Below, piece by piece: positions 2,688 to 64,000 of a DNA stretch of 64,000 bases (positions within the stretch are counted from its first letter, which is position 1; the number at the start of each line of letters is the position of its first letter). The notes under the pieces are model-generated. The model searched no databases. It worked only from the letters and a program-made list of their open reading frames with translations, and was not told the origin of the DNA. A program made the translations under genes and the position numbers. Source of the stretch: Klebsiella pneumoniae (GTDB lineage Bacteria; Pseudomonadota; Gammaproteobacteria; Eutrophobiales; Eutrophobiaceae); the NCBI GenBank assembly GCA_945878555.1, contig CAMDWI010000010.1:6559-70558 (forward strand), in the 5' to 3' direction.

Positions 2688-2716
2688 TTGACATTAGAGT
2701 AAAAGACGCATAATGT
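2688..2716 (+). promoter_or_regulatory. Sigma70-like promoter upstream of amidohydrolase paralog 2
   Basis: TTGACA at 2688-2693. The -10 candidates are CATAAT at 2709-2714 (15-nt spacer) or TAATGT at 2711-2716 (17-nt spacer). It lies ~60 nt upstream of the ATG at 2776. Confidence 0.45.
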
Positions 2717-2775
2717 TTAACGTTAATTTCAGTTGGTTGTTTCAAGGGTTTTCCTTTTATTCAGGGGGTACGACG

Positions 2776-10116: not shown

Positions 10117-10128
10117 CAGGAATGCACA

Positions 10129-47289: not shown

Positions 47290-47291
47290 CC

Positions 47292-48191: not shown

Positions 48192-49918
48192 ACAGGATCT
48201 TGTCCGCGCTGGATAGGGTCTCCCTCAGGCTGATGCTGCTACCGGCACTCGCTGTAATGTTTATATGTGGCTTTATCTTCATAGCATCGCTGGGTGGCAC
48301 TGCCGGACATCTGGTCCGCTTCGAGCCACAGCAGTCCGGTGATTTGCCAGCGGATCAGCAAATCGGCGGCTGGGCCAGTCTGGACAAGGACAGCTATATC
48401 CTCGGTGAGCAGGCCGGTTTCAGCATTCGCATTCTGTATCGACCGGCTGCTGTCATCCCTGACTTTGATACCTTCAAACGTAACATCGGCTTTCTGCCGT
48501 TCGATCAGTTAAATTCCAGCGAAACTGAGCACGATATTGGCAAGGGGATCCGCGAGTATAGACTGGAATATACCCTGCATGTGATCGGCGCGAGAAAACC
48601 AGGCAGTTATCCGTTTAATCCCGCCGTGCTTCCGTATTCAAATGCCGGGGCCACAGGCAGTGATCTGCACACACTGAGGATCAACCGCCCGGAACTGCGT
48701 ATCGGCTCGCTCTATCACTGGGATGCGGGACTGATACCATTGCGACCGATCCGCGGTCACATACTGGAACAGCAAGCCTTGCGTCAGTCAGCCATGCTGG
48801 CAGGCGCTGTGGTGTTGTTGAGCATGCTGGCATTTTTACTCTGGCGATACGGAAGGCGCCGTCAACTGCATGAAATGAGCAGCGCTGAACAGCTCTGGTT
48901 CCAGTTCAGGCAACCGCGAGACCCGGCGATGGACAACCGGTCCGTGATGCTGGCATATGAACGGATCTTTACCCGCCTCTTGCAAGAGCAGATATCGATG
49001 GATCCGGAAATGTTCTGGTCCGGTCATCAGCCCGCAGATGATGCCTGGTGCGGCAGTGTCGATCAGGCGAGGACGCTGTTATGGCGTTTGTATCAGCCGG
49101 GAGAAACAGTGGATGACGATGTTCGTCTCATGCATGTATTACTGGCAGACAGGCTTGCTCTCAGTGTAGAGGAACAAAGACTGGTCGTTGAGCAACAACC
49201 TTCATTGATCGAGCGACTGAAGTTGCAACAGTCGGTGGCAACGGTAATTATCATTACAGGCATTAGCGGAGTGTCCCTGCTGGCACTTGCGGTGACGCCT
49301 GACATGTGGCTTGCCTCTGAGGTACGTAATTACAACCAGACTGTTGACCTTATCAATGCGTCCCATGGTTACGACGAAGACCTGTTGCTGGAATTACAGT
49401 CTTTTGCGGCAACTGCGGAGATACCGGAGATCCGGGCAGCGGCTTTTTATAATAGTGGCACGACCCGGGCCAGATACAGTTTTGCTGACAGTGGTCCTGC
49501 GGTCCAGTCCCGGATACTCGAACTGGTGTTTCAGGCAGAGACGGCGGAAGACCTGATGCAGACACTGTTGCTGAGTGAGATGTCTCCTTCGGAAGAAGAC
49601 GTGGTCAAAATGATGATAGCGGCAGCCGAGAAATTGTTGCAGGCCGAACTCGATCTTCAGGCGGCCACACGTGGACTGCGGGCCAGTGACGATGTCCTCA
49701 GAAATCTGGAACTGGTTACACGTTGGCGTCACGCGATTCTTACCCGTCTGTTGCAGTTACGTGAATTGTTCAGTACGAAGCCTGGCGAGGCGGGTGATGA
49801 AGAGATAATTTCAGATCAGGGTGTCGTTGATATTATCAACGCAAAGATACCGGAAGAATATGACGATGCCGAGATGGCCAAAGACAACAGCCACTACATA
49901 ATCTTTGAGCGGTTCTGA
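48188..49918 (+). CDS. Hypothetical membrane protein of the second Bat-like cluster (BatD-like topology)
   Basis: The ATGA overlaps the DUF58 stop. N-terminal TM, then a ~190-aa periplasmic segment, a central TM (AGAVVLLSMLAFLLWRY) and a long helical cytoplasmic domain. This is the same topology as 11007-12011. Confidence 0.5.
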   Translation: MNRILSALDRVSLRLMLLPALAVMFICGFIFIASLGGTAGHLVRFEPQQSGDLPADQQIGGWASLDKDSYILGEQAGFSIRILYRPAAVIPDFDTFKRNIGFLPFDQLNSSETEHDIGKGIREYRLEYTLHVIGARKPGSYPFNPAVLPYSNAGATGSDLHTLRINRPELRIGSLYHWDAGLIPLRPIRGHILEQQALRQSAMLAGAVVLLSMLAFLLWRYGRRRQLHEMSSAEQLWFQFRQPRDPAMDNRSVMLAYERIFTRLLQEQISMDPEMFWSGHQPADDAWCGSVDQARTLLWRLYQPGETVDDDVRLMHVLLADRLALSVEEQRLVVEQQPSLIERLKLQQSVATVIIITGISGVSLLALAVTPDMWLASEVRNYNQTVDLINASHGYDEDLLLELQSFAATAEIPEIRAAAFYNSGTTRARYSFADSGPAVQSRILELVFQAETAEDLMQTLLLSEMSPSEEDVVKMMIAAAEKLLQAELDLQAATRGLRASDDVLRNLELVTRWRHAILTRLLQLRELFSTKPGEAGDEEIISDQGVVDIINAKIPEEYDDAEMAKDNSHYIIFERF

Positions 49919-49927
49919 CAGGGCAGT

Positions 49928-50992
49928 ATGAACGCGCTGGCAGCGATAGTTGAATCAATCAGTTTCGCTACTCCCGAACTGGCGCTTTTGATATTGCCGC
50001 TGGTAATGATATTGATATGGCAGTTGTATGGGGATCGGAGGCTCGGTGCCCTGCAGCTTACCGGGCTTGAATATCTGGCAGGCTCCGGCATACGCAACAG
50101 CCAATCCAGAAAACGGTTACAGGTTGCGATGCGGTGCGTGATGGTTGCCGGGCTGGGACTCTTGCTCGCCGGGCCTGTTTATCGCTCCGCCACACCACTG
50201 TTTTCCCAGGATACCAGGGTATTACAAAGGAATTTTGTGGTGGCGTTTGATATGTCACCGTCGATGAATCTCCCTGCCAGTTCGAAAGGTTTTGGTGGTG
50301 ATGATTTGAAGGAAGGTGATGGTGGTGTTACCCGTTATGAGATGGCCAGAGATGCATTTCACGATTTTCTGGACAGGTTTCGGGGCGAGCGATTTGGACT
50401 GATCCTGTTCAGCACCGAACCCTTTTTTGCACGCTGGCCGACGATTGAGACGGAGAACCGTTTTGATGAGGTGCTGGAAAGCATACGACGTGGGTCGGGT
50501 ACCCAGCTGGAGGCGTTTTCCTCACTGACAAATATTGACAAGGGTTTGCTGATGGCACGCAAGGCCTTTAATGGAGAGGAAGGCGCGATCATCCTGATTT
50601 CAGATGCAGAGGACGATCTGGAGAACCTGGGGCGTGGTGTGCGTAGCCTGCGCCAGGCCGGAATTCGTTTATATACACTGGGGGTTGGAATACCGGACGA
50701 TATCCTGGCAAGGATATCGCAGGAATTTGCCGCGGACCCGGGTTTCCGGATATTCCGTGCAGATTCCGGGCAGGACATGGAAGAGGCCTATCGTGTTGTC
50801 AGCGAGATTGAGGAGTCGCCACAGTTTGTTGATGAGACCCGGGTCTTTGAGACGGATTTACGGGCCCCGTTAGCTGCACTACTCGCAATAATTGCGGTCT
50901 TGTTGCTAGTCATCAATGAAGTTATGTTCCATCAGACTGTTAGCATGAAACTATCATCCCGCCCTGTACTGAAGGTCAGCGATGGGTTTTGA
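49928..50992 (+). CDS. VWA-domain membrane protein (BatA-like, second cluster)
   Basis: N-terminal TMs, then a VWA domain with MIDAS FVVAFDMSPSMN, and a C-terminal TM (LAALLAIIAVLLLVI). Confidence 0.75.
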   Translation: MNALAAIVESISFATPELALLILPLVMILIWQLYGDRRLGALQLTGLEYLAGSGIRNSQSRKRLQVAMRCVMVAGLGLLLAGPVYRSATPLFSQDTRVLQRNFVVAFDMSPSMNLPASSKGFGGDDLKEGDGGVTRYEMARDAFHDFLDRFRGERFGLILFSTEPFFARWPTIETENRFDEVLESIRRGSGTQLEAFSSLTNIDKGLLMARKAFNGEEGAIILISDAEDDLENLGRGVRSLRQAGIRLYTLGVGIPDDILARISQEFAADPGFRIFRADSGQDMEEAYRVVSEIEESPQFVDETRVFETDLRAPLAALLAIIAVLLLVINEVMFHQTVSMKLSSRPVLKVSDGF

Positions 50993-51953
50993 TTATCCCT
51001 GGGTCCTGGCCCTGTTTGCAATGCTCGTACCACTGGTATGGGCGATGCGCAAGAGCGGGACAGTGACCAGGACAATACTGCTGAAGTTCCGCAGTGCGCC
51101 ACCGACATCCCGTTATTTCAGGTTGCGTAATCTATTTACCATTCTGTTTACTTCTGCGCTGGTGCTTGTCGGTGCAGGTCCGTATATCGAACCACAACAG
51201 ACAGCTGACTACCTGTTTCTGGTTGATACCTCACGCAGCATGCATGCACGCAACTCCTGTGACGAACCGACGTTTCTGGATCGCGCAAAAAATGTCATGT
51301 TCGATGTGATGGATGATGTACCCGAAGCCAGATTCGGAATCGTGGCCTTTGACAGGCTGGCTTTCCCGGTAACACAGCTGACCTTTAATCACAGTTATCT
51401 CCGCTCTGCCATCAATAACGGTGTGTTTGTAGGCATGACCTACCGGGCGACTGACACGGATCTGTTCAACGCACTAAAAGTGATTGCTGCCAAAAAGCAG
51501 ACCATGCCGGAGTTGTATGGAAATGTCGAATATGCCGTGCTGATAAGTGATGGTTATCTGGATGAAGAGGACTGGCGACAGAATATGGAACAGCCAATGA
51601 AGGACCTTTTGGCGTCCGGTATTACGCTTCTGGTCGTTGGTGTGGGTAATCCTGTCGACACACCAATCCCGGTAACGGATATTGATGAGGTATGCAGTGA
51701 TGCCCTGACTGAAATCGATGGCAAGACCATCCGGATCCCGTTGCGCAAGGATATCCTGCAGACTATCGCTGCAGGCGGGCAGGGTGAATATTTTGATGAG
51801 ACGACCACGGGGGAGCTGGTCAACTATCTGCGTGGCCGAACCCTGAAACAGGCGACCGATGATGTGCAGTTCGGAACCGATCAGCGTAAAAATATCGGAC
51901 TGATGTTTTTGTATCCGGCAACGCTGGCGCTGGCCGGTTTGTTACTTCTGTAG
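50982..51953 (+). CDS. VWA-domain membrane protein (BatB-like, second cluster)
   Basis: Overlaps the upstream gene by 11 nt. VWA MIDAS motif YLFLVDTSRSMH, with N- and C-terminal TMs. Confidence 0.75.
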   Translation: MGFDYPWVLALFAMLVPLVWAMRKSGTVTRTILLKFRSAPPTSRYFRLRNLFTILFTSALVLVGAGPYIEPQQTADYLFLVDTSRSMHARNSCDEPTFLDRAKNVMFDVMDDVPEARFGIVAFDRLAFPVTQLTFNHSYLRSAINNGVFVGMTYRATDTDLFNALKVIAAKKQTMPELYGNVEYAVLISDGYLDEEDWRQNMEQPMKDLLASGITLLVVGVGNPVDTPIPVTDIDEVCSDALTEIDGKTIRIPLRKDILQTIAAGGQGEYFDETTTGELVNYLRGRTLKQATDDVQFGTDQRKNIGLMFLYPATLALAGLLLL

Positions 51954-51973: not shown

Positions 51974-53332
51974 CTACGGACTCCGACCTGCAGCCCTGAA
52001 TTCGGGTATTGTTTCATTCAGAATGGCCAGAATGGCAGTGCGGTCTACCGTATTTAGGTGGGTAAACTCATCCGTGTCCTTGTTCTCGAGGATCGTAGCC
52101 AGTCTCTGATAGATATGCTGTTTGACCAGAACAGGCAGATTATCAAATGCAGCTGAATAGATCAGATAACTGAGCGGATAACGGAATAATCTGGTTTTCA
52201 GGTCAAATTCGCGCAAGGAACGCCCCTGACTGTCACTCGGACCGAGTCCGGTGAACCATTCCGCATAAGCGGGATTACCTTCTAACGTGTCTGTCAGTGG
52301 TACCTCATCTGCCATCAACAACGCCCCGATCAGTGGTGCGGAAATATCATTTATTAACCGGGCAACAACCTCAGGGATTTTATTAATGTCCTGTCCGGAC
52401 CCCGCCAGTAATTCCGGGTTTCCGTTCAGTGCAGAGCGAATGTCATAATTGACCCGTGTAATCAGGTTCTGTACTTCAACCTGATGTTCAATCACCATCA
52501 ATGCGACAATATCACTGGTTTTAGCGGGATACGGATCGGTATTCAGCAGTGTATCCAGACTTGTGACGTTGCCGATTCGCAGGCTCTCCAGCTGGAACAG
52601 GTCAGCAGGGTCATTTACGGCGATATTACCCAGATGAACCTGTTTACCGTGTTTGCCGGTCACATACCATCCGCCCCATCGGCTTTCCAGCGGGGTAGAG
52701 GTGTCTGTGAGTATCCAGCCTTCATGCGATACCAGATTACCATTCGCACCGGTATAACCTGAACCGAGGATAAAGCGAGGTACACCTCCTCCCGTCATTG
52801 AATAGGAATCGTGACAACGCAGACACTGGCCGGTTTCTTGTACAAACCGGGGGGTCGACTCTGCGTTCTGCTCAAGTGTATAAAATACCGGACCCAGATG
52901 CGGATCCATCGACGCAATTTCGAGCACACCCGATCCGGGCACCATTGCGATATAGGTTGTGTCGTTAAAATAGATGGCCCGGGGCGTTTTCGGTGTGATA
53001 TTCGCGATATTCAGACTGGTACGGGAAAATACCAGTACTTGTGAGGCTGGACTGATCTTTAGTGATTCCAGCAGAGCATCCAGGTAACCCCTGTCTGCAT
53101 GAAATTTCAGTCCGGAATTATTACCTGTTTCAATTGTGGCTATCGGATCGGTACGTGCTGTACTTGAATAACGCATGACACCGTACTCGATATCACTTTC
53201 TGTGTCGGAGTCAGACCCATACGGTGAGGAGGAGTTATCATTTGATTGTCCTGCCACAGGGAGTCCGCTCAGCAACAGTCCCATCGACAGGAAGATTGAC
53301 ATCATTCTTGAATAGCAGGTATCAGGTGTCAT
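51974..53332 (-). CDS. Hypothetical secreted protein with a single CxxCH heme-binding motif
   Basis: ORF 51974..53380 (TTG). I prefer the in-frame ATG at 53332 (MTPDTCYSRMMSIFLSMGLLLSGLPVAGQ is a signal peptide), but the start is uncertain. The internal motif GQCLRCHDS reads as CxxCH. It is immediately downstream of, and co-oriented with, the cytochrome c gene. Confidence 0.5.
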   Translation of the reverse strand: MTPDTCYSRMMSIFLSMGLLLSGLPVAGQSNDNSSSPYGSDSDTESDIEYGVMRYSSTARTDPIATIETGNNSGLKFHADRGYLDALLESLKISPASQVLVFSRTSLNIANITPKTPRAIYFNDTTYIAMVPGSGVLEIASMDPHLGPVFYTLEQNAESTPRFVQETGQCLRCHDSYSMTGGGVPRFILGSGYTGANGNLVSHEGWILTDTSTPLESRWGGWYVTGKHGKQVHLGNIAVNDPADLFQLESLRIGNVTSLDTLLNTDPYPAKTSDIVALMVIEHQVEVQNLITRVNYDIRSALNGNPELLAGSGQDINKIPEVVARLINDISAPLIGALLMADEVPLTDTLEGNPAYAEWFTGLGPSDSQGRSLREFDLKTRLFRYPLSYLIYSAAFDNLPVLVKQHIYQRLATILENKDTDEFTHLNTVDRTAILAILNETIPEFRAAGRSP

Positions 53333-53459
53333 CAGTATAAATGGGTCAGGACAAACCGGTTTATCGGGGTATCTATACAAGACCGGCCTGACAGGTATCG
53401 CTCCTGCAGGCCGGTTTGTGTGTCATCGCCAAGTCTCCGGTCAAGAGACTTGTGTCCGC

Positions 53460-53774
53460 TTATTTGCCTCCGGAGAGGTATTCAGCCAGATGCTCGATAT
53501 CTTCATCAGTCAGTGTGCTAGCCATCGGATTCATGGTCGGCCCTGCACGTTCGCCGCTACGGAAAGCAGTCAATTGTGTCTGAATATAGGCTTTTTCAAG
53601 CCCTGCCAGCTTGGGAAACATTTCCGGCGCCTGGCTGTCACCCGCAGGTCCGTGACAACCGACACATCCCTTGGACAAATAGGTAGCTTCACCAGCAGCG
53701 GCGTCCGCCTGTACAGTAGATATTGCAGAGACGGTAAGTAGTCCTGACATAAACAGAACGTGTATGCTTTTCAT
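53460..53774 (-). CDS. Class I c-type cytochrome (mono-haem, c-551/c-552-like)
   Basis: 104 aa with a signal peptide. The heme-binding CxxCH is SKGCVGCHG, with a downstream Met ligand candidate (GPTMNPM). The size is typical. Confidence 0.8.
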   Translation of the reverse strand: MKSIHVLFMSGLLTVSAISTVQADAAAGEATYLSKGCVGCHGPAGDSQAPEMFPKLAGLEKAYIQTQLTAFRSGERAGPTMNPMASTLTDEDIEHLAEYLSGGK

Positions 53775-54293
53775 CAGATTTCCTCAGTAATGTAGTTCAA
53801 AAAATTTGGTCCGGTACATCAGTAGGCTGCAAATTGCCTAACCCCTGTCCAGTTCATCAATTAGGCTGTTACAGCTCCAATCAGTTCATGACAAACCTGC
53901 TTTTTTTTGTTTATCAGGTCTGCCTGCAACTACGCCGGGTAATATTCTACTTTATCATGCACGGATTAAACAGGGGGTATCCCGGTCTGTATCACAGGAT
54001 TGTGACCTGGGGTGGAGAATTACCCTGTTCAGGTGTTTTTACGCATTCTGGACAGTTCCTCCTGTCAGATATCATCTTTGTCCCATAAATAATGGTTGCT
54101 AAAGAATCTGGCGAGGTCGTAGTATTTGCGAGGCAAAATTACACTGGCTGGATCTATATAAACAGGTTCAGTTTTTTTAAGTGAGGTGAGGCGCCTTGAA
54201 TCGCAAATATTGGGGGGCAGCGTACACAGATTTTGCAGAGGCGGGTCCGGGTGAGACCTGGCCATCTGAATATCATTCTACGAGGAGGGAGTT

Positions 54294-55265
54294 ATGGGAT
54301 TAATGGGTAAAATAAGCGGTCATACCGCAAAAAGGGGTGTTTTTTCAGCATTTTTATTGACAACTTGTGCACTGTCGGTATTTCTGAGTACCAACGTGTC
54401 AGCCCAGTTGACACCTGACAGACTGGATTCCGCAAATCGTGCCAACAACGAGGATCAGACTCCGCGCGATCCGATCCAGATTGCCAGCAATATCTGGTGG
54501 GTTGGTCATTCGGAAGTCGGTTCATTTCTGATAACTACCTCGGAAGGCCTGATCCTGATGGACACTACGTCGCCTGAACACGTGACATGGGTAATCGACA
54601 GTATCAAGAAGGCCGGTTTCAAACTTGAGGACATCAAGTATATTCTCAATTCACATCCTCATGCAGAACATATAGGAGGCCTGGCCCAGTTCAAAAAGGT
54701 CGCACCGAATGCAAAGGTAGTAACCTCGGCAGGAACAGCGGCAATCATTGCCAGCGGCGGTAAAAGCGATTTTCGCAATATGATGCAGGGTGATGAGGGG
54801 GCGGAATACTTCGAGCCGGTTCAGGTGGATGCCACGATTGGTGATATGGAAGAGATAAAACTCGGTGATGTGACCCTTGTTGCTCATATTACATCAGGCC
54901 ATACCCCAGGAGCCACAACCTGGACGATGAAGGTCATGGACAACGGTAAGGAATACAATGCTGTTTACATGAGTGGCATGTCAGCCTCGGGCGTCGACCG
55001 CGGCCCACTTATAAAGAACGAACTTTATCCGGAAATAGCAGATGACTTTGAAAAATCCTTTGCACATCTGAAGACGCTGCAGTGTGATTTCTATTTGTAT
55101 GCACGTGCGTCATCAATTGATCTGGACAAGAAAGTCGCCCTGAAAAAAGAGGGCAGCACCGCCGAAAATCCGTTTATTGACCCGGCAGGCTGCGCACATT
55201 ACATCAATTTTTATGAATCCAGATACAGAAAGCAGCTTGAAGAGGAACAGGCTGCCAAGATGTAG
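54294..55265 (+). CDS. Secreted metallo-beta-lactamase-fold hydrolase (subclass B3-like)
   Basis: RBS GAGGAGGGAG with a signal peptide. The motif NSHPHAEHIGG is an HxHxDH-type variant with Glu at the Asp position. Downstream His motifs are VAHITSGHTPGATTW. Confidence 0.7.
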   Translation: MGLMGKISGHTAKRGVFSAFLLTTCALSVFLSTNVSAQLTPDRLDSANRANNEDQTPRDPIQIASNIWWVGHSEVGSFLITTSEGLILMDTTSPEHVTWVIDSIKKAGFKLEDIKYILNSHPHAEHIGGLAQFKKVAPNAKVVTSAGTAAIIASGGKSDFRNMMQGDEGAEYFEPVQVDATIGDMEEIKLGDVTLVAHITSGHTPGATTWTMKVMDNGKEYNAVYMSGMSASGVDRGPLIKNELYPEIADDFEKSFAHLKTLQCDFYLYARASSIDLDKKVALKKEGSTAENPFIDPAGCAHYINFYESRYRKQLEEEQAAKM

Positions 55266-55374
55266 TCAGGACCGTGTCATTACGGGAAGATAGATGGAAA
55301 AATCCTGACTGCAGCGGCCTCGTGCCGCTGCAGTCAGTTTGGAACAGGCAAAAGTACAGGAGCCGGGGGTGCGT

Positions 55375-55899
55375 ATGAGCATATACAACACAGTAAAAAG
55401 CATTACAGGAATACTTCTGGCGTTCGGACCCGTGCTGGTGTGGGGGCATGCCCAGTTACTCGTGGCTCCAGCACCGGATGATCCGACACCAACAGCCTTT
55501 GTTTCACCCCTCCCTCGGGAAGATAACGTTCGTATGAAGGACTTGTTGCCGTGCGGTGGATTTCGCTCACAGCCGCCGGCCAGCGTAAAAGGGGAACCGC
55601 AGCGGTCATATACCACGGGTTCTACCATACGGGTACAGTGGAAGGAAACCAATGACCATACTGGTGTATGGCGTATCGATTTATCTGCAGATGAAGAAAA
55701 ATCATGGCAAGTCCTGTTCAATATGAAGGATGGTGCTGATGGGGAAATCAGTGAAGAAGCGCCAAAGTATTACTGGGCAGATATTACCCTGCCCTCCGGG
55801 ATAAAGTGTAAAAACTGCACGTTTCGCCTCACCCAGTCAATGGGGGAAATTGATGATGGAAATGACTATTTCTCCTGTGCGGATATCACAATAAATTGA
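55375..55899 (+). CDS. Small secreted hypothetical protein (predicted mature N-terminus begins with His)
   Basis: ORF 55339 (TTG)..55899; I prefer the ATG at 55375, downstream of AGGAG/GGGGG. Signal peptide MSIYNTVKSITGILLAFGPVLVWG; the predicted cleavage site VWG|HAQ leaves a His at +1. I recognise no family. Confidence 0.5.
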   Translation: MSIYNTVKSITGILLAFGPVLVWGHAQLLVAPAPDDPTPTAFVSPLPREDNVRMKDLLPCGGFRSQPPASVKGEPQRSYTTGSTIRVQWKETNDHTGVWRIDLSADEEKSWQVLFNMKDGADGEISEEAPKYYWADITLPSGIKCKNCTFRLTQSMGEIDDGNDYFSCADITIN

Positions 55900-56222
55900 C
55901 GAATGTATGAGTCGGATGAAATGACTTTTCGCCCGGGACTATCAGGTGGTGCAGGTTAATATGCAGACGGGACAGCGTCCGCTCAAATCCATTATTGTTT
56001 GATTTGGATCAAAAACGGAATTGCTTGTTTATATATACTTTAGGCTGGGCATCTTCAGCAAAACACACCAGACAGATGCTAAGATGTTGAATTGTATATA
56101 AAATTTGTTTTTCTGAACCTGTCTGCTTCTCATCGAAATGTGATAGCAGCTTAGTGAACAACTATAAAATATGTAGTAGACTGGTCGCGATTTATTCAGT
56201 AACAATTTTGGAGGGGTTTTAC

Positions 56223-58655
56223 GTGAGATTACGCCTTACTTTATTAGGCCTTTATTCTGTATTTTCCGTGGCAGGGGTGCAGGCGCAGGAGACACCAGCG
56301 GCTGAAAATTCGATTGCTTCATACCGTTCTGTTATGGATCGTTATTGTGTTACCTGTCATAACGAAACCCTTAAAACGGCAAACCTGATGCTCGACAAGG
56401 CCGATATAAACGACCTGAATGTTGAGCCGATGGTGTGGGAGAAGGTGTTGCTTAAAATGCAGACACGTTCCATGCCGCCGGTCGGTATGCCCAGGCCAGA
56501 TGAGTCGTTTTATATCGGATTTGGTGAACATCTTGAACGTGAACTTGATCTGGCCAATCAGGCTGATCCAAACCCAGGCAAGACTGTCTCTGCCCATCGT
56601 CTGAACCGTACTGAATATACCAATGTAATCCGCGACCTGCTGGCAGTTGATGTTGATGGTGCCTCTATGCTTCCTCCGGACAATTCGGGTGGTTTTGATA
56701 ACCTTGGCGATCTGTTATCGGTATCACAGGTGCTTATGGAGAAGTATATGGCTGCGGCACGGCAGGTCAGCCGTCTTGCTGTAGGTGACCCGACAATCGA
56801 CACGGACGTACATGAATACGTCGTATCCCCGTTCCTGCTCCAGAACGAACGGATGAATGAAGATCTGCCGTTTGGTACTCGAGGTGGTATAGCTGTAAAC
56901 CACCTGTTCCCGCTTGAAGGTGAATATGAGCTGAATGTTCGGCTGCTGCGTACCGATGGCACCGGTCTGGTCATAGGTATCGATGAACCACATCAGCTGG
57001 ATGTACGTGTAGATGGTAAGCGAGTTCAGTTGTTAACCGTAGGTGGTAAAAACGTAGCTCTTGCAATGGGTGCAGGGCGTGCAGACAAGACCCCGCCGGT
57101 ATTTGAGCAGGCCCAGTATGAACGTACGGCTGATGATGTGCTGAAAGTGCGATTCCCGGTCAGCGCAGGGGCGAAGTCGGTACAGGTAGCATTTCTGGAA
57201 GAGAATTTCGCCTGGGAAGGCCAGATACCCCAGCGTTCATATGATAGCTACATGAAATCCAGAATGGAGAATGATTACCAGCGCGCATGGACCGAACCTT
57301 CGGTCTCGAGCGTCACCATCACCGGGCCGTTTAATGTCAAAGGTGCCGGAAATACTGCGAGTAGGGAAAAAGTATTTATCTGTAACCCCAAAACCAGTAA
57401 AGCCGAGTCGGCGTGTGCAGAAAAAATAATCGCCAACCTGGCACGCAAGGCATTTCGCCGTCCGGTCAAGGATGCCGATATCAAACCGCTGATCTCGTTA
57501 TATGAACAGGGTGCCAAAGAGGGTGGTTCGTTTGAGTCAGGGGTACAGATGGCAATTGAAGGTCTGCTCGTCAGTACGGAGTTTCTGTTCCGTATCGAGC
57601 GTGAGCCTGCCAATGTAGCAGCCAACCAGAATTATGAGTTGAGTGACATCGAACTTGCATCACGATTGTCATTTTTCCTCTGGAGCAGTATCCCTGATGA
57701 AGAATTGCTGAAGGTCGCCGAGCAGGGCAAGCTTGGCAAGCCGGCGGTTCTGGACCAACAGGTCAAGAGAATGCTTGCTGATGAGCGTTCTACAACACTG
57801 GTAAGTAATTTTGCCGAACAGTGGCTGCTGTTGCGTAACCTGCCGCATACGGAAAAGAACCAGGAAATCTTCCCACAGTTTGACGAAAACCTGCGTAAGG
57901 ACTTCCAGAAAGAGACGGAGTTGTTCCTTGGCAGTATCTTCCGCGATGATCGTTCGATACTCGACTTGTTCAGGGCAGATTACAAGTACCTGAACGAAAG
58001 GCTGGCTCGCCATTACGATATCCCGGATGTCTATGGTAATCGTTTTCGCCGCGTATCTGTCTCGGATATAAATAAACAGGGGCTTTTAGCACAGGGTGCT
58101 GTACTCGCGATCACCTCCTATCCAAACCGCACCTCGCCGGTATTACGAGGAAAATGGGTTCTGGAGAATATTATGGCAGCGCCGCCACCGCCGCCACCGA
58201 CTGTGATACCACCACTACAGGAATCTGATGACAAGGGTAAGGTTATGTCGATGCGTCAGGCAATGGAGAAGCATCGCGCCAATCCGGTATGTGCAGTGTG
58301 CCACAATCGTATGGATCCTATAGGATTTGGTCTGGAGAATTTCAATCCGATAGGCCAGTGGCGTACCGAAGATGCCGGTAGCCCGATAGACTCGTCTGGT
58401 ATGCTACCAGACGGAACCAAGTTCCAGGGGCCAGCAGAATTGCAGAAGGCATTGTTGAACCAGTCTTCGGTCATAGCGAGTGCATTTACCCAAAAACTGC
58501 TGACCTATGCATTGGGGCGTGATATAGCCTATTACGATATGACATCAGTGCGCAAAATTGTGCACGAGTCCAAAGCGAGTGATTACAGGTTTTCATCAAT
58601 AGTTACCGGAATTGTTAACAGTTTACCATTTCAGATGAGGAGGACGGGCTCATGA
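56223..58655 (+). CDS. Large secreted multi-DUF protein with an N-terminal CxxCH (Planctomycete-type DUF1595/DUF1587/DUF1592/DUF1588/DUF1585-like; alternatively PSCyt/DUF1549/DUF1553-like)
   Basis: ORF 56154 (GTG)..58655. I prefer the GTG at 56223 with GGAGG 8 nt upstream, which gives the signal peptide (M)RLRLTLLGLYSVFSVAGVQAQE. The N-terminus has the heme-like motif DRYCVTCHNETLK. The block HRLNRTEYTNVIRDLL is, as far as I recall, the hallmark of these Planctomycete-type families. The family name is from memory. Confidence 0.7.
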   Translation: MRLRLTLLGLYSVFSVAGVQAQETPAAENSIASYRSVMDRYCVTCHNETLKTANLMLDKADINDLNVEPMVWEKVLLKMQTRSMPPVGMPRPDESFYIGFGEHLERELDLANQADPNPGKTVSAHRLNRTEYTNVIRDLLAVDVDGASMLPPDNSGGFDNLGDLLSVSQVLMEKYMAAARQVSRLAVGDPTIDTDVHEYVVSPFLLQNERMNEDLPFGTRGGIAVNHLFPLEGEYELNVRLLRTDGTGLVIGIDEPHQLDVRVDGKRVQLLTVGGKNVALAMGAGRADKTPPVFEQAQYERTADDVLKVRFPVSAGAKSVQVAFLEENFAWEGQIPQRSYDSYMKSRMENDYQRAWTEPSVSSVTITGPFNVKGAGNTASREKVFICNPKTSKAESACAEKIIANLARKAFRRPVKDADIKPLISLYEQGAKEGGSFESGVQMAIEGLLVSTEFLFRIEREPANVAANQNYELSDIELASRLSFFLWSSIPDEELLKVAEQGKLGKPAVLDQQVKRMLADERSTTLVSNFAEQWLLLRNLPHTEKNQEIFPQFDENLRKDFQKETELFLGSIFRDDRSILDLFRADYKYLNERLARHYDIPDVYGNRFRRVSVSDINKQGLLAQGAVLAITSYPNRTSPVLRGKWVLENIMAAPPPPPPTVIPPLQESDDKGKVMSMRQAMEKHRANPVCAVCHNRMDPIGFGLENFNPIGQWRTEDAGSPIDSSGMLPDGTKFQGPAELQKALLNQSSVIASAFTQKLLTYALGRDIAYYDMTSVRKIVHESKASDYRFSSIVTGIVNSLPFQMRRTGS

Positions 58656-59986
58656 TAATTTTCAAAAAGGCGATACCCAGGCGTACATTTTTGCGTGGTT
58701 TGAGTGCCTCGGTCGCATTACCGATGTTGAGCGCAATGGTACCGGCACTGGCGAATCCGAACGATCCTGCCAGCAAGATGCCGATTCGTGTTGGATACGT
58801 ATATACACCGAATGGCATAATCCGTGACAGGTGGACGCCTAAGGTCGCGGGCGCCAATTATGAAATGACCGACATCCTGAAACAGTGGGAGCCGTTCCGT
58901 GACCAGATGCTGGTACTCAGCCATATGGATAACGGTGCTTCCGAGAGCGTCAGCGGACACTCGGGTGGAAGTTCGATGTTCCTGACCGGTATCGAGCCGA
59001 ACAAGTCATTAAGCGAAGTTCGATGCGGAATTTCAGTGGATCAGGTTATTGCAGCCGAATTCGGCAAGCACACACCGCTTTCCTCGTTACAGGTTTGTAT
59101 CGAGAATGCTGCAGAACTTGCTGGCCAGTCTGCTGCCGGGTATAGCTCGGCTTATACCAACACCATATCCTGGGCCAGCCCGACTACCCCATTGCCGATG
59201 GAACATCGTCCTCGTGAAGTTTTCGAGCGTTTGTTTGGTGATGGTGGTACTGATCCTGCGGCCCGCCAGAGCCGTTTGAGCAGACAGCGCAGTATTCTCG
59301 ACTTTGTTCGAGAGGATATGGCAAGGGTAAACAAGACACTCGGGATGGAAGACAGCGCCAAGTTGAGTGAATATCTTGATGCAGTTCGTGGCGTGGAATT
59401 CCAGATTCAGAAGGCAGAAGCAAAAACAGATATGGAGTTGCCAGAAATGAATCGTCCAGTGGGTATCCCTGCCCATGGGGATCATCTCAAGTTAATGTAT
59501 GACCTGTTATTACTGGCGTACCAGACCGATATGACCCGGGTATTTACCTTTATGGTGGCCCGTGAATACAGTGAAATGGTATTTACCCATCTCGGTCACA
59601 AAGACCCCTACCATCCGCTGACACACCATCGCGGTGATCCGGTCAGGAAACGCCAGGCTGGTGAAATTGATGTATACCACGCCTCATTGTTTGGCGAGTT
59701 CCTGGGCAAACTGAAGGCAGCCAAGGATGCAGACGGTTCCTCAATGCTGGATAACTCGCTTCTGGTTTACGGTGCGGGAATGGGTGATGGTGACGTACAC
59801 AGCCAGTGGAACATACCAGTTGCGTTAATCGGTGGCGCTGGCGGCATAAAGGGTGGGCGTCATATAGCTTACAAGCAGGGTACACCGATGTGTAATCTGC
59901 ATGTGACTATGCTGAACAAACTGGGCATGCCTACAGAGACGTTCGGGAAGTCTTCCGGAGAGCTTGATCTGAGCCTTTCCGCATAA
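58652..59986 (+). CDS. Tat-signal protein, DUF1552-like (HxxSHH-family; alternatively DUF1501), partner of the upstream multi-DUF protein
   Basis: ATGA overlap with the upstream stop. The N-terminus IPRRTFLRGLSASVALPMLSAM is a twin-arginine motif with the LPxLxAM pattern I associate with DUF1552. The internal motif YHPLTHHRGDP resembles the DUF1552 HxxSHH motif. 444 aa. Confidence 0.65.
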   Translation: MIIFKKAIPRRTFLRGLSASVALPMLSAMVPALANPNDPASKMPIRVGYVYTPNGIIRDRWTPKVAGANYEMTDILKQWEPFRDQMLVLSHMDNGASESVSGHSGGSSMFLTGIEPNKSLSEVRCGISVDQVIAAEFGKHTPLSSLQVCIENAAELAGQSAAGYSSAYTNTISWASPTTPLPMEHRPREVFERLFGDGGTDPAARQSRLSRQRSILDFVREDMARVNKTLGMEDSAKLSEYLDAVRGVEFQIQKAEAKTDMELPEMNRPVGIPAHGDHLKLMYDLLLLAYQTDMTRVFTFMVAREYSEMVFTHLGHKDPYHPLTHHRGDPVRKRQAGEIDVYHASLFGEFLGKLKAAKDADGSSMLDNSLLVYGAGMGDGDVHSQWNIPVALIGGAGGIKGGRHIAYKQGTPMCNLHVTMLNKLGMPTETFGKSSGELDLSLSA

Positions 59987-60012
59987 CAGTAGATATTTAA
60001 AGAGGTTATTAG

Positions 60013-61833
60013 ATGAGCATGAAGGGGAAACGTTTGTCCGGTTGGGTGGCTCCATTACTCGTACTGTGTTCAGCAGCCAGTCTGGCTGCTGAACCTGATT
60101 ACCGCCTGGTTGAATCTGCGCGAAATCAGAACTGGCAGCAGGTGCAGGAACTAATCAAGGACAAGGCAGATGCAAGGTCTGCGCAACCAGACGGGGCGAC
60201 AGCGTTGGCCTGGGCTGTTTATTGGGATAATCTTGAAACAGTTAACCAGTTGATTGCAGCTGGCGCGGATGTGAATGCTGCGAATGACTATGGTGTAACT
60301 CCGTTGAATCTCGCTTGCAAGAACCGCAACCCCCAGATCGTGAAGGCCTTGCTAGAGGCGAAGGCAGATCCGAATATTGCGCTCTGGAGTGGTGAGACAC
60401 CGCTGATGACGGCTGCACGTACAGGCGTTGTCGAGGTTGCACAGTTGTTACTGGAACATGGTGCCAATATCAATGTTCAGGAACCAAAGCGTGGCCAGAC
60501 CGCATTAATGTGGGCTATCTCTTTCCGAAATCCGGAAGTGGCGAAGTTGTTGATTGATAAAGGTGCAGATGTTGCGCTCAAGACCAGAAAATATCAGGAA
60601 GCAGGTTACGCACCTATGGTGCTGGAGGCCTATGCTGGAAATGTTGAAGGCACTCCCCAGGGTGGTTATACCGCATTGATGTTTGCTGCCCGTGTAGGAG
60701 ATATGGAAACCAGTAAGTTATTGCTGGCGCATGGCGCAGTCATTAATGAATCCTCCGTTGAAGAGGGCCCGGCGCTGGTTATTGCCAGTGCGGGAGGATT
60801 TGAAGACCTTGCCTTGTATCTGCTTGAACAAGGTGCGGATCCCAAGAGTGCTGATAGTAATGGCATGACCTCTTTGCACTATACAATGCGAGATGGTCTC
60901 AAGCTGTTACACGGATATGAGATTGTCGCCGCCACCAGGGTATGTGGATATGCGGCTGATTCCCGTTGTAAACCGATTGAGACAGTTAGTCCGGAAGAAC
61001 TAGAGAAAGCAAATACACCAGGTTCAGGTCTGTATATCGTTGAAGGTACGGTAGACACGAATAATAATAACGACGGTGAAAGTATGACCGACGAAATTTT
61101 ACCTGGTGGCAATATGTATGAACTGGCAGAGGCCTTGCTGGCAAAAGGAGCAGACCCGGATGCGGAGATGAAGTATCCACCTTCCAGGTTACGTATGGAC
61201 AGTTTGCCCTGGCTAAATCTGGAAGGTGCTACACCTTTCTTTCTGGCGACAGCATCACTGGATACCTCTGCAATGGAGATGTTGCTGGAACACGGTGCAA
61301 AACCATTGGTTTCAACCAGACCCAATCCCGCCGTGCTGGAAAAACAGACGAAGGTCTACGCTGACGATAACCAGATTCTGGGTAACGGTTCTTCATTGAT
61401 GGTAGCTGTAGGTCTGGGTAAGAAGAATGACTTTACTCCTACGGAAGAGAAGAGTGCGCTTGATAGTGCCAAACGACTGGTTGCCCTGGGCGCAGATGTT
61501 AATGAAGCCACGGCTACGGGCTGGACAGCATTACATGCCGCTGCCTTTGTGGGTGCAAATTCGCTGGTCAGTTATCTGGTGGATCAGGGTGCAAAGGTCA
61601 ATGTTCAGACCGGTTGTGGACGCACACCATTAAGCCTTGCGCTGGGAGTAAGCGTAATTGGTCTGCTTGACCGTACTGTGCCGCATGAGTCTACAGCAGA
61701 CTTGTTAAAGTCGCTCGGGGCCGACGATGCAAAGGCCTCTGCGCCTGCTGGACAATGTGTGCTTGGCCGAGGTGGTCTGGAAGTTGATATCGAGTTGAAG
61801 AAGCAGATTGAGCAGGCCAAGAGCCAGCTTTGA
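60013..61833 (+). CDS. Secreted ankyrin-repeat protein
   Basis: RBS AAGAGG. Signal peptide MSMKGKRLSGWVAPLLVLCSAASLAA. There are at least 8 ankyrin-type repeats (e.g. GATALAWAVYWDNLETVNQLIAAGADVNAANDYGVTPLNLACKNRNPQIVKALLEAKADPN) with a non-repeat insert around residues 290-370. Confidence 0.8.
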   Translation: MSMKGKRLSGWVAPLLVLCSAASLAAEPDYRLVESARNQNWQQVQELIKDKADARSAQPDGATALAWAVYWDNLETVNQLIAAGADVNAANDYGVTPLNLACKNRNPQIVKALLEAKADPNIALWSGETPLMTAARTGVVEVAQLLLEHGANINVQEPKRGQTALMWAISFRNPEVAKLLIDKGADVALKTRKYQEAGYAPMVLEAYAGNVEGTPQGGYTALMFAARVGDMETSKLLLAHGAVINESSVEEGPALVIASAGGFEDLALYLLEQGADPKSADSNGMTSLHYTMRDGLKLLHGYEIVAATRVCGYAADSRCKPIETVSPEELEKANTPGSGLYIVEGTVDTNNNNDGESMTDEILPGGNMYELAEALLAKGADPDAEMKYPPSRLRMDSLPWLNLEGATPFFLATASLDTSAMEMLLEHGAKPLVSTRPNPAVLEKQTKVYADDNQILGNGSSLMVAVGLGKKNDFTPTEEKSALDSAKRLVALGADVNEATATGWTALHAAAFVGANSLVSYLVDQGAKVNVQTGCGRTPLSLALGVSVIGLLDRTVPHESTADLLKSLGADDAKASAPAGQCVLGRGGLEVDIELKKQIEQAKSQL

Positions 61834-61874
61834 TTTTACTCTCGTCAGCAGTCCATCAGGACTGATTGAGAAAA

Positions 61875-61899
61875 GGCACCCGGTGGGTGCCTTTTTTTT
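61875..61899 (+). terminator. Rho-independent terminator (GGCACCC-ggt-GGGTGCC + T8)
   Basis: Read from the sequence 40 nt after the ankyrin-gene stop. Confidence 0.8.
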
Positions 61900-62023
61900 C
61901 CCAGGAAGTATTACGGGGGTAAATTGACTGTAACGGTATGAATGATATATGTTTGGAAAGTATCTGCAGGCTGTACAAGGCGCGACACAGGTTATGATTT
62001 AAATACATGCAGGAGCGGGGGCA

Positions 62024-64000
62024 TTGAACAGGTTTTTCACCACAATCATCACCGGTATTGCCGGCGGCGTATTAATTGTTGCATCCGGAACGAGTCAGGC
62101 ACAACAGGCCTCTCCCTATCGTGCGTTACTCGACAAATATTGCGTAAGTTGTCATAACGAAACCCTGAAGACCGCAGGCCTGATGCTGGATAAGGTGAAC
62201 GTGGATGATATCAGCCAGAATCCACAAGTCTGGGAGCGCGTGATTATGAAGCTGACATTACGCGCCATGCCACCTGTAGGTATACCTGTTCGTCCTTCCG
62301 AGGATGAATATGACTCCATGCTCACCTATCTTCAATCCGGCCTCGATCATCTGGCTGAAGAGAATCCGGAGCCAGGCCGTGTGACCGTACACAGGCTGAA
62401 CCGGACAGAATATGCAAATGCCATCCGTGATCTGTTGGATATGCAGGTAGATACCACAAAGATGTTGCCCCCTGACAATATTGGTCAGGGGTTTGACAAT
62501 ATTGCAGAAGTACTCGCGGTGTCGCCGCTGCTTATGGAACAGTACATGTTTGCCGCAGGCAGGATCAGCCGTCTTGCCGTCGGACCTGCGGAAATGCAGC
62601 CCGCCAGTGAAACCTACAATATACCTGATACGTTCCGACAGGATGCCTATATGGGTGAGGACCTTCCATTTGGTTCCAGAGGAGGTTCGGTCATCCGCCA
62701 TCACTTCCCGATGGATGGTGAATATACCGTTAGCATCAAAATGCACAGAAGCATGGAAGGTTATATCCGCGGGATACAAAACGAACACAAGCTCGATGTG
62801 CGTTTGAATGATCAGCGTATTGGTATGATGAGTATAGGTGGCAAATTTATTGCCCGTTCAGGTCCCTTGTTCAATGAAAGCCAGAACCCGCAGTACGCAG
62901 GTGACCCCGAGCAGACTGGTTATGAATTTACGGCGGATGAAGAACTGGTATTGAAATTTCCGGCCAGCGCAGGTACCCATACACTGGGCGTTACATTTGT
63001 AGATGAATCAGTCAAACCGACCGGGATTATGACACCAGCATTGCTGTTACCCGATATTGGCCATTACAAGGGGGGTAATCCAGCGGTTGCCAGCGTTACT
63101 GTCAGCGGTCCCTATCAGGTCAAGGGTCCCGGTGATACACCGAGCCGTAACAGGATATTTACTTGCAAACCCGGGTCCACTGCCCCGGACAAGGACAAGC
63201 AGGCCTGTGCACATAGCATACTCGCAATGTTGGCGCGTCAGGCCTATCGTCGACCGGTAAATGATGAAGACATGGCTGATCTGATGTCACTATACAATAC
63301 CGGGGCGAACGAAAAGGGTTTTGAAAGCGGAATTGAACTGGCCTTGCAAAGTATTCTTGCCGGTCCCGAATTCCTGTTCCGGGTTGCGCAGGACCCAGCT
63401 GGTGTGACTGCAGGTACAGTTTATCCAATCAGTGATATTGAGCTGGCTTCCAGACTTTCATTTTTCCTGTGGAGTACCATCCCGGATAAAGAATTACTGG
63501 ATCTGGCTGAGCAGGGCAAGTTGCGTGAGCCGGGTATCCTCGAGGAACAAATTCGCCGGATGATGGCAGATACCCGCTCGGGTGCCTTGATAGATAATTT
63601 CGGAGAACAGTGGCTGGTGTTGCGTAATGTGGATATCGCTGCGCCACATCCGAATATCTTCCCTGAGTTTGATAATGAACTACGAGAGGCGTTCAAACAG
63701 GAAACCCGATTGTGGTTTGAAAGCATGATTCGCGAGGATCATAGTATTCTGGAGATGCTTACCTCGAACTATACATACGTGAATGAGCGTCTCGCGCGTC
63801 ATTACGGTATTCCTGACATATATGGCAGCCGGTTCCGTCGCATAAGTCTGGATGGTCTGGAAGAGCGCAAGGGATTGCTGGGCAAGGGCAGTCTGTTGCT
63901 GGCCACCTCGTATAACAACCGGACTTCACCGGTTTTGCGCGGCAAATGGGTACTGGAAAATCTGCTGGATATGCCACCACCGCCGCCGCCTGAAAATGTC
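62024..64000 (+). CDS. Second copy of the large CxxCH multi-DUF protein (paralog of 56223-58655); 3' end beyond the window
   Basis: The frame is open from the stop at 62000-62002 to the window end. I propose the TTG start at 62024 with AGGAG 8 nt upstream; the signal peptide is ...FFTTIITGIAGGVLIVASGTSQAQQ. The translation is collinear with 56223-58655 (LLDKYCVSCHNETLKTAGLMLDK...; HRLNRTEYANAIRDLL...; SFFLWSTIPDKELLDLAEQGKL...). Confidence 0.7.
   Translation, partial: MNRFFTTIITGIAGGVLIVASGTSQAQQASPYRALLDKYCVSCHNETLKTAGLMLDKVNVDDISQNPQVWERVIMKLTLRAMPPVGIPVRPSEDEYDSMLTYLQSGLDHLAEENPEPGRVTVHRLNRTEYANAIRDLLDMQVDTTKMLPPDNIGQGFDNIAEVLAVSPLLMEQYMFAAGRISRLAVGPAEMQPASETYNIPDTFRQDAYMGEDLPFGSRGGSVIRHHFPMDGEYTVSIKMHRSMEGYIRGIQNEHKLDVRLNDQRIGMMSIGGKFIARSGPLFNESQNPQYAGDPEQTGYEFTADEELVLKFPASAGTHTLGVTFVDESVKPTGIMTPALLLPDIGHYKGGNPAVASVTVSGPYQVKGPGDTPSRNRIFTCKPGSTAPDKDKQACAHSILAMLARQAYRRPVNDEDMADLMSLYNTGANEKGFESGIELALQSILAGPEFLFRVAQDPAGVTAGTVYPISDIELASRLSFFLWSTIPDKELLDLAEQGKLREPGILEEQIRRMMADTRSGALIDNFGEQWLVLRNVDIAAPHPNIFPEFDNELREAFKQETRLWFESMIREDHSILEMLTSNYTYVNERLARHYGIPDIYGSRFRRISLDGLEERKGLLGKGSLLLATSYNNRTSPVLRGKWVLENLLDMPPPPPPENV

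Follow-up and report, generated by a model that had tools for sequence, protein, structure and literature searches.

A stretch of 64,000 nucleotides from contig CAMDWI010000010.1 (the whole of it is called the window here) ends within a large open reading frame on the forward strand that resembles another large gene upstream of it. This raises the question whether the frame belongs to an intact gene with a partner of its own, and what proteins of this kind might do together. Both genes, named gene 1 and gene 2 in the following, encode multi-domain cytochromes of the DUF1592 family. Our analysis indicates that gene 2 (62024-64000) is almost certainly the first 82% of an intact 808-codon gene and a second, anciently diverged paralogue of gene 1 (56223-58655). 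In related genomes such genes head a recurring unit, in which they are accompanied by genes for a DUF1552 protein and an ankyrin-repeat protein, and we tentatively propose, with a probability of roughly 0.3, that the three products constitute a periplasmic redox-enzyme module.

The second cytochrome gene and its continuation

The translation from 62024 is free of stop codons for 659 codons up to the window end. An in-frame TAA at 62000-62002 leaves the TTG at 62024 as the earliest start candidate downstream of that stop, and this TTG as well as the AGGAG in front of it (Table 1) are invariant in two related contigs, L109 (86-90% DNA identity, collinear with the window) and L026. The predicted N-terminus (MNRFFTTIITGIAGGVLIVASGTSQA, followed by QQ after the cleavage point) reads as a Sec signal peptide. 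The initial annotation described the frame as collinear with 56223-58655, and BLASTP against 56223-58652 indeed returned a collinear alignment with 303/630 identities (48%, E = 0), which contains all motifs that had been listed as shared, namely YCVSCHNETLKTAG, HRLNRTEYANAIRDLL, FRVAQDP versus FRIEREP, SFFLWS...EELL..AEQGKL, RLARHY..G.RFRR and GKWVLENL..PPPPPP. Over the full length, the two products are 47% identical (788 aa). The window part of gene 2 matches PSD3 (81.7 bits), PSD5 (60.0), PSD4 (153.9) and PSCyt3 (49.3) above the Pfam gathering thresholds, and reads in order Sec signal, N-terminal CxxCH module, PSD3, a beta-sandwich like that of a carbohydrate-binding module (CBM), PSD5, PSD4 and the start of PSCyt3. 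The latter stops at model position 45/98 with the window, and the second CxxCH and PSD2 are located past the window end. Gene 1 shows the same order with complete PSCyt3 and PSD2. Judged by Pfam order and by the CxxCH in PSCyt3, both paralogues are assigned to PSCyt3/PSD group III of the planctomycete-specific cytochromes, whose domain definitions reportedly go back to Studholme et al. in 2004. Gene 2 is an ordinary member of a very widespread family, for which an exhaustive search of representatives gave 10,803 clusters at 50% identity (E <= 1e-30).

Evidence for the part beyond the window comes from contig L108, which is identical to positions 61678-64000 (100%, 2,323 nt, 0 mismatches) and runs on for 1,571 nt. 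There the frame of gene 2 continues uninterrupted to a TGA at window-equivalent position 64450. The corresponding 808-aa protein, P0252, was recovered from the cluster (90% identity) around the best homologue, equals the window translation at 659/659 residues and is encoded on the same 124,011-bp contig as an exact copy of DUF1552 #1, the DUF1552 protein next to gene 1. All five Pfam domains of P0252 score above gathering in the order PSD3-PSD5-PSD4-PSCyt3-PSD2 (PSCyt3 121.7 and PSD2 74.7 bits), and the second haem motif HRANPVCSACHKLMDPIGF lies inside PSCyt3 in the tail shared by L108 and P0252. Downstream of gene 2, L108 contains an 81-nt spacer with AGGAGG and then, on the same strand, the start of a second DUF1552 gene (DUF1552 #2) at window-equivalent position 64531. 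Its product has the twin-arginine motif RRTFLKG and the motif HSMSHH, matches Pfam DUF1552 (HXXSHH) with E = 6.4e-91 and is 46% identical to DUF1552 #1. The counterpart in the closest relative comprises 448 aa. The expectation that a DUF1552-like partner of about 440 aa with a signal for twin-arginine translocation (Tat) may follow gene 2 was thus borne out.

The initial annotation had also named a downstream frameshift or truncation and the lack of a partner as findings that would speak against an intact second copy. Both are excluded for this strain, because the frame on L108 is intact and DUF1552 #2 is present, because the ratio of nonsynonymous to synonymous substitutions (dN/dS) of gene 2 against its 95.5%-identical relative in L026 is 0.068, and because 106/106 family-invariant positions located within the window are kept. 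A decaying pseudogene or truncated duplication remnant, for which the window alone would leave room as the last 149 codons lie outside, is in the light of these data and of a 90%-identity cluster with at least 15 members, most of them 808 aa long, extremely improbable.

The phylogeny of the two large paralogues that had been recommended as a check was calculated as an unbootstrapped neighbour-joining tree of 38 copies, of which only the coarse split is used. In this tree gene 2 groups with L026, with the L001 unit after the TonB-dependent receptor and with unit 2 of L002, and gene 1 groups with unit 1 of L002 in a different deep clade near Acidobacteriota sequences. Since the two genes fall into separate deep clades, each with positional orthologues in other genomes, the tree marks them as ancient paralogues held in conserved positions and not as recent duplicates. 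A recent tandem duplication or a repeat assembly artefact, which the common strand, the shared architecture and the distance of 3.4 kb might suggest, has hardly any probability left, as the copies share only 47-48% of their amino acids, each is closer to positional orthologues in other metagenome-assembled genomes (MAGs) than to its neighbour, and the partners are equally diverged (DUF1552 46%, ankyrin 36% identity). Uncultured Gammaproteobacteria, Candidatus Eutrophobius among them, provide the closest genomes, and the supposed expansion of the family is seen in most of the related MAGs sampled, with at least 3-6 distinct copies each, counted on the fetched loci only. Two of the loci, L016 and L018 (CAMBTO01 contigs), are labelled "MAG: Klebsiella pneumoniae" yet hold DUF1592-DUF1552-ankyrin units typical of environmental gammaproteobacterial MAGs; they are probably mislabelled or come from a contaminated bin.

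The cytochrome, DUF1552 and ankyrin genes as a recurring unit

Gene 1 is the first of three genes in unit 1 (Table 1), and the start of DUF1552 #1 overlaps its stop by 4 nt (ATGA). The reading frame of gene 1 opens already at GTG 56154; with the GTG at 56223 that gene callers choose, the product has a normal signal peptide (MRLRLTLLGLYSVFSVAGVQA), and the 23 additional codons are probably not translated. The unit is closed by a hairpin (GGCACCC-ggt-GGGTGCC, 61875-61891) with a run of eight T, 41 nt past the ankyrin stop codon. Its folding energy of -23.9 kcal/mol (z = -4.9) was not reached by any of 200 shuffled sequences. A consensus terminator scanner did not flag this hairpin at 61868-61899, probably because an upstream A-run, which makes the terminator symmetric, pairs with part of the T-run. 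The folding statistics therefore agree with the statement of the initial annotation that gene 2 begins right after the terminator of a first operon; the operon itself has to be extended from two to three genes, as the ankyrin gene (60013-61833) belongs to it.

A promoter-like sequence lies between the terminator and gene 2. Because the promoter scan of the region returned 10 sites against 10.8 expected from shuffled sequences and so no excess over chance, this site alone is no evidence, and a transcription start of its own for unit 2 is only weakly indicated. In L109 the terminator hairpin is 100% conserved and both promoter-like hexamers, the AGGAG and the TTG are retained, at an overall conservation of the spacer that is about that of the coding flanks. 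In L001 (321-3179) and L002 (6830-9775) a gene for a TonB-dependent receptor fills the spacer, whereas at this point no more than the 190-nt terminator/promoter spacer is present in the window (61834-62023), in L109 and in the P0002 contig; the site is therefore an insertion/deletion point within the array. An Rfam search of 53300-64000 revealed no riboswitch or regulatory RNA and a single chance match to a miRNA (E = 0.42).

Arrays of such units were found in several relatives. A syntenic 74 kb contig (orthologue 87% identical) carries genes for a cytochrome c, a B3-type metallo-beta-lactamase (MBL) and a protein like lytic polysaccharide monooxygenases (LPMO), followed by three DUF1592-DUF1552-ankyrin units with a propeller gene of the pyrroloquinoline quinone (PQQ) type between units 2 and 3. 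L001 and L002 (78% and 75% identical) contain the same array and in addition the TonB-dependent receptor between units 1 and 2. For unit 2, the ankyrin gene is known from L109 only; the encoded protein has a signal peptide and shares 72-74% of its residues with its positional orthologues in L001 and L002. As far as can be read from these contigs, unit 2 would consist of the di-haem protein, the Tat-exported DUF1552 protein (from L108, 100% identical) and a Sec-exported ankyrin protein (from L109 only). The initial annotation had spoken of tandem arrays of pairs in genomes with expanded families. Tandem arrangement and expansion were confirmed, but the repeated element is a triad and not a pair, and a gene for a TonB-dependent receptor or a PQQ-type propeller may stand between tandem units.

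A census of gene order in 25 genome loci and 80 metagenome loci (44-53% identical) showed how regular this arrangement is. In the genome loci an ankyrin gene lies directly downstream of the DUF1592-DUF1552 genes in 30/30 assessable units. In the metagenome loci the DUF1552 gene follows the DUF1592 gene in all 65 cases with room for it, and the ankyrin gene is adjacent in all 54 assessable units, namely co-directional downstream in 33, divergent upstream in 16, convergent downstream in four and co-directional upstream in one. Overall, an ankyrin gene adjoins 84/84 assessable units from Gammaproteobacteria, Acidobacteriota and diverse metagenomes, and no unit with both flanks visible lacks it. 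The occurrence of four orientations indicates that this adjacency persisted through rearrangements. A Sec signal peptide was present on 36/36 ankyrin proteins examined, orthologues and paralogues, and the motif RR[TS]F[LI][KR]G in 40/40 DUF1552 proteins. Across 38 complete units the three genes show correlated divergence (Spearman 0.69-0.80), and their nearest neighbours agree in 26-27 units; the highest value, 0.80, links ankyrin and cytochrome, and a shared species phylogeny contributes to such correlations.

A possible periplasmic redox module

An AlphaFold2 model of P0001, a protein 98% identical to the gene 2 product, has a mean predicted local distance difference test (pLDDT) score of 80.9 and a predicted template modelling score of 0.76. 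In this model a helical cytochrome module at the N-terminus is followed by a beta-sandwich (about residues 190-370) and by a large helical region from about 373 to the C-terminus. Invariant in 44 homologues are C40/C43/H44, M82 in an MPP context, C687/C690/H691 and the cysteine pair C381/C395, and the N-terminal module is predicted to be a class-I-like c-type cytochrome. The more distant large proteins of loci L110-L113 match Pfam CBM60 between PSD3 and PSD5, in agreement with the CBM-like sandwich of the gene 2 protein, and sometimes PSCyt1 in the N-terminal half. Many distant family members align only to the part beginning near residue 355, which makes the helical C-terminal half the conserved core. 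Neither the large protein nor DUF1552 had a significant match in the PDB when single sequences or profiles were used as queries, and NCBIfam contains no model for either protein. The helical core has no solved structural relative.

The modelled fold of DUF1552 belongs to the alkaline-phosphatase superfamily, with the core alpha/beta fold present. Both DUF1552 partners carry the HxxSHH family motif and a twin-arginine signal (RRTFLRG and HPLTHH in DUF1552 #1). In 80 sequences from both paralogue clades H278, D284, H321, H325, H326, H383 and H417 are conserved, and so are D130, D217, D234, E305 and several Arg. Metal binding by the His/Asp set is putative. The position of the nucleophile was assigned to residues 97-112 from the secondary structure of the model only; within this segment no Ser, Thr or Cys is conserved at >=97% of the 80 sequences, and PNG or PVG stands where, by the same assignment, the acidic residue after strand 1 would be expected. 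The segment is paralogue-specific (GHSGGSS versus GGTHARPCAA in the two DUF1552 proteins) and could be a specificity determinant. A direct comparison of L108:2854-3894 with window positions 58652-59986 gives GHSGGSSMFLTG versus GGTHARPCAAYLTG for the putative nucleophile segment, and the distal His/Asp set is invariant.

The redox proposal starts from three exported proteins encoded together: one with two invariant haem motifs, one with a Tat signal, an alkaline-phosphatase-type fold and a conserved His/Asp set, and one with ankyrin repeats. These would meet in the periplasm. DUF1552 would provide an alkaline-phosphatase-fold scaffold bearing a metal-dependent catalytic centre built from the seven His and Asp residues H278 to H417 listed above, and it would probably be loaded with metal or cofactor in the cytoplasm, because Tat exports folded protein. 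The beta-sandwich and the helical body of the large protein might bind a substrate or partner, and its two c-type haems would pass electrons between the DUF1552 centre and either soluble cytochromes or the respiratory chain. The ankyrin protein may act as scaffold or haem-handling helper, by analogy to the ankyrin helpers of the catalases KatB and KatA. Such periplasmic ankyrin proteins are needed for catalase activity in Pseudomonas aeruginosa and Campylobacter jejuni, "probably by allowing heme binding" (PMC7567364). As in the AnkB-KatB (P. aeruginosa), Cj1386-KatA (C. jejuni) and ank-katE (Leptospira) pairs, a gene for an ankyrin protein with signal peptide stands here beside one for a periplasmic haem protein. 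Unlike in those pairs, the ankyrin proteins comprise 500-610 aa and the partners are a c-type di-haem protein and DUF1552 instead of a catalase; the likeness rests on repeat type, export signal and gene adjacency, and the helper role is known for catalases only. Paralogous units, finally, might differ in their substrates, which the TonB-dependent receptors inserted into some of the arrays would import.

Several observations weigh against this proposal. The DUF1552 model is of moderate confidence (mean pLDDT 62.9), and the Pfam matches to the N-terminal cytochrome remain below the gathering thresholds. The enzymes known from the alkaline-phosphatase superfamily are hydrolases, transferases or mutases and not redox enzymes. 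The flanking genes are heterogeneous, with no family in more than about 10% of the flanks. The third gene of unit 2 is not seen in the strain of the window itself, and three distant lineages that retain the DUF1592/DUF1552 pair miss the ankyrin gene.

The main rival is a non-redox hydrolase, similar to sulfatases, phosphodiesterases or phosphonate hydrolases, in which the large protein would serve for substrate binding or anchoring only. We regard this as rather unlikely. The modelled fold would fit, but the model-inferred nucleophile segment has no conserved Ser, Thr or Cys candidate, and the conserved set is His-rich with HxxSHH, in contrast to the alkaline-phosphatase superfamily. DUF1552 shares 9-14% identity with known members, among them S1 sulfatases, NPP phosphodiesterases and phosphonate monoester hydrolases, without similarity at the level of hidden Markov models, and Pfam links it neither to Sulfatase nor to Phosphodiest or DUF1501 at E values up to 10. 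Furthermore, a subunit with a purely structural role would hardly be expected to keep two haem-attachment motifs strictly invariant, and neither sulfatases nor glycoside hydrolases rank among the 25 most frequent families of the 109 flanking genes, defined as the non-module genes within 4 kb of the units. A sulfatase/polysaccharide context, as suggested for Verrucomicrobia, is accordingly not supported for the clade of the window.

It is also conceivable, at clearly lower odds, that the cytochrome passes electrons to a copper monooxygenase-like protein or takes them up from neighbouring PQQ-type dehydrogenases. The cluster begins with an LPMO_10/BIM1-like gene whose product has an invariant predicted N-terminal His, and Cbp2D of Cellvibrio japonicus (CBM2-X158-FN3-X183-DUF1587-X132), a candidate LPMO electron donor whose c-type cytochrome domain reduces LPMOs, has the DUF1587/PSD3 domain and is, unlike the window protein, not annotated with PSD4, PSD5, PSCyt3 or PSD2 (PMC8981238). 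Both are secreted multi-domain proteins that combine CxxCH cytochrome domains with a carbohydrate-binding module and DUF1587/PSD3, and a DUF1592 protein with CBM2 has been reported from Cellvibrio. Cbp2D is not known to have a DUF1552 partner. The LPMO-like neighbour is lineage-specific: it occurs only in close relatives of the window and in 0/80 metagenome loci, and an LPMO redox partnership was therefore discarded as a general function. In favor of the dehydrogenases speaks the PQQ propeller gene that separates units 2 and 3 in relatives, but such propellers make up only about 10% of flanking genes, and neither version explains the obligatory DUF1552 partner. The propeller between units 2 and 3 (L002:15588-17393 and orthologues) scores below the cut-off for methanol/ethanol dehydrogenases (332 versus 480 bits) and matches the "acido-empty-quinoprotein" model far under its cut-off (293 versus 650 bits); on the basis of these two matches it may not bind PQQ.

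Comparably doubtful is the idea that the functional unit is the DUF1592/DUF1552 pair only, with the ankyrin gene as an incidental neighbour. The published description names only the pair (He et al., 2017, PMC5615132), and in the four loci of three more distant lineages (L110-L113, DUF1592 proteins 33-37% identical to those of the window) the DUF1552 partner is kept without any ankyrin gene, as a motif scan gave 0 matches against 6 in the positive control. An ankyrin partner universal for the whole family is thereby rejected, and as these lineages keep the pair without it, the ankyrin protein cannot be essential to the core chemistry. Within the clade, however, the invariable adjacency in four orientations, the signal peptide on every ankyrin protein and the divergence that tracks that of the cytochrome argue against an incidental neighbour.

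Gene neighbourhood and relation to known systems

Table 1. Positions and support of the features discussed (strand in the third column).
Feature	Position	Strand	Details and support
Gene 2, DUF1592 family, first 659 of 808 codons	62024..64000	+	Open reading frame, paralogy, Pfam
Shine-Dalgarno sequence of gene 2	62011..62015	+	AGGAG, 8 nt 5' of the TTG start
Unit 1, gene 1, first DUF1592-family paralogue	56223..58655	+	810 aa from GTG 56223
Unit 1, DUF1552 #1 (HXXSHH)	58652..59986	+	444 aa, twin-arginine signal; modelled fold of the alkaline-phosphatase superfamily
Unit 1, ankyrin-repeat protein, periplasmic	60013..61833	+	606 aa, Sec signal peptide; Pfam Ank families, best E 1.7e-58
Intrinsic terminator closing unit 1	61868..61899	+	Stem 61875-61881/61885-61891, loop ggt, T8 61892-61899
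Promoter-like sequence between terminator and gene 2	61924..61953	+	TTGACT-N18-TATGTT, 9/12 match
Small secreted LPMO_10/BIM1-like protein heading the cluster	55375..55899	+	Pfam LPMO_10 above gathering
Secreted subclass B3 metallo-beta-lactamase	54294-55265	+	NCBIfam 256.3 versus 240-bit cut-off
Mono-haem cytochrome c just upstream of the cluster	53460-53774	-	104 aa, CVGCH
Secreted protein, no Pfam family	51974-53380	-	468 aa, CLRCH motif

Among the 109 flanking genes, PQQ-type propellers (10) and amidohydrolases (8) are the most frequent, followed by TonB-receptor plug domains (5), CarboxypepD_reg (4), SGL/Vgb-lyase propellers (4) and dienelactone hydrolases (3). The LPMO-like gene in front of gene 1 is syntenic in the close relatives, and its product lies just under the cut-off of the NCBIfam model "SCE4755 family polysaccharide monooxygenase-like" (70 versus 75 bits). 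Its predicted cleavage site between G and HAQLL is invariant in three orthologues, and the signal peptide diverges; by this prediction, the mature protein would start with His as in copper histidine-brace proteins. We treat the gene as context and not as an established part of the module. The B3 MBL gene is syntenic with the cluster in the P0002 contig, L027 and L109, and represents an environmental homologue, with no activity implied. The cytochrome c gene at 53460-53774 is syntenic in relatives as well. Two paralogous operons for MoxR-type AAA ATPase, DUF58 and VWA proteins lie at 8078-13027 and 46270-51953 on the forward strand, and four Amidohydro_3 paralogues of 620-740 aa at 492-2483, 2713-4764, 28069-29937 and 43718-45934 on the same strand; Amidohydro_3 is the second commonest neighbour of the module in other genomes. 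The rest of the window contains no haem or PQQ biogenesis genes that bear on the mechanism.

Group III PSCyt3 genes with PSD4 and usually PSD2/3/5, paired with DUF1552, have been described in Rhodopirellula and freshwater Verrucomicrobia, where the function of the proteins is stated as not known (He et al., 2017, PMC5615132). The genes of the window share with these systems an identical Pfam architecture, an adjacent DUF1552 gene, several paralogues per genome and a predicted periplasmic location. In contrast to them, the host is an uncultured gammaproteobacterium and no member of the Planctomycetes-Verrucomicrobia-Chlamydiae group, and the neighbours are PQQ propellers, amidohydrolases and TonB-dependent receptors instead of sulfatases. 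The clade of the window furthermore adds a periplasmic ankyrin gene to each unit, whereas the group III description names none and the word ankyrin does not occur in its searched supplementary text (PMC5615132). The group II systems, PSCyt2/PSD1 (DUF1549/DUF1553) with DUF1501, follow the same logic of a large multi-domain c-type cytochrome beside an uncharacterised family, but the Pfam families differ throughout, and no group II genes were seen in the window or the loci. DUF1501 proteins probably also have a Tat signal and a sulfatase-like fold. In the literature searched, PSCyt proteins were nowhere connected with an ankyrin partner and no function was reported for them, an absence that is no proof.

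The PSCyt3/DUF1552 pair was known before; useful leads come from the ankyrin partner specific to this clade and from the fold assigned to DUF1552. For a very large family without a solved structure for either protein, three points sharpen the question: a partner with the fold of the alkaline-phosphatase superfamily and no conserved nucleophile candidate, a clade-wide periplasmic ankyrin protein, and a helical cytochrome core without solved relative. Together they define a concrete three-protein complex that is open to expression and assay. A far-reaching and rather improbable possibility is that in the Gammaproteobacteria/Acidobacteriota clade the pair is really an obligate three-protein periplasmic machine, in which a DUF1552 protein without the usual nucleophile and with a His-rich metal centre would be wired to two c-type haems, with the ankyrin protein as assembly or scaffold factor, and that the arrays with TonB-dependent receptors and PQQ dehydrogenases would form an oxidative, non-glycoside-hydrolase counterpart of polysaccharide-utilisation loci. 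If this is true, such arrays would process imported organic matter oxidatively.

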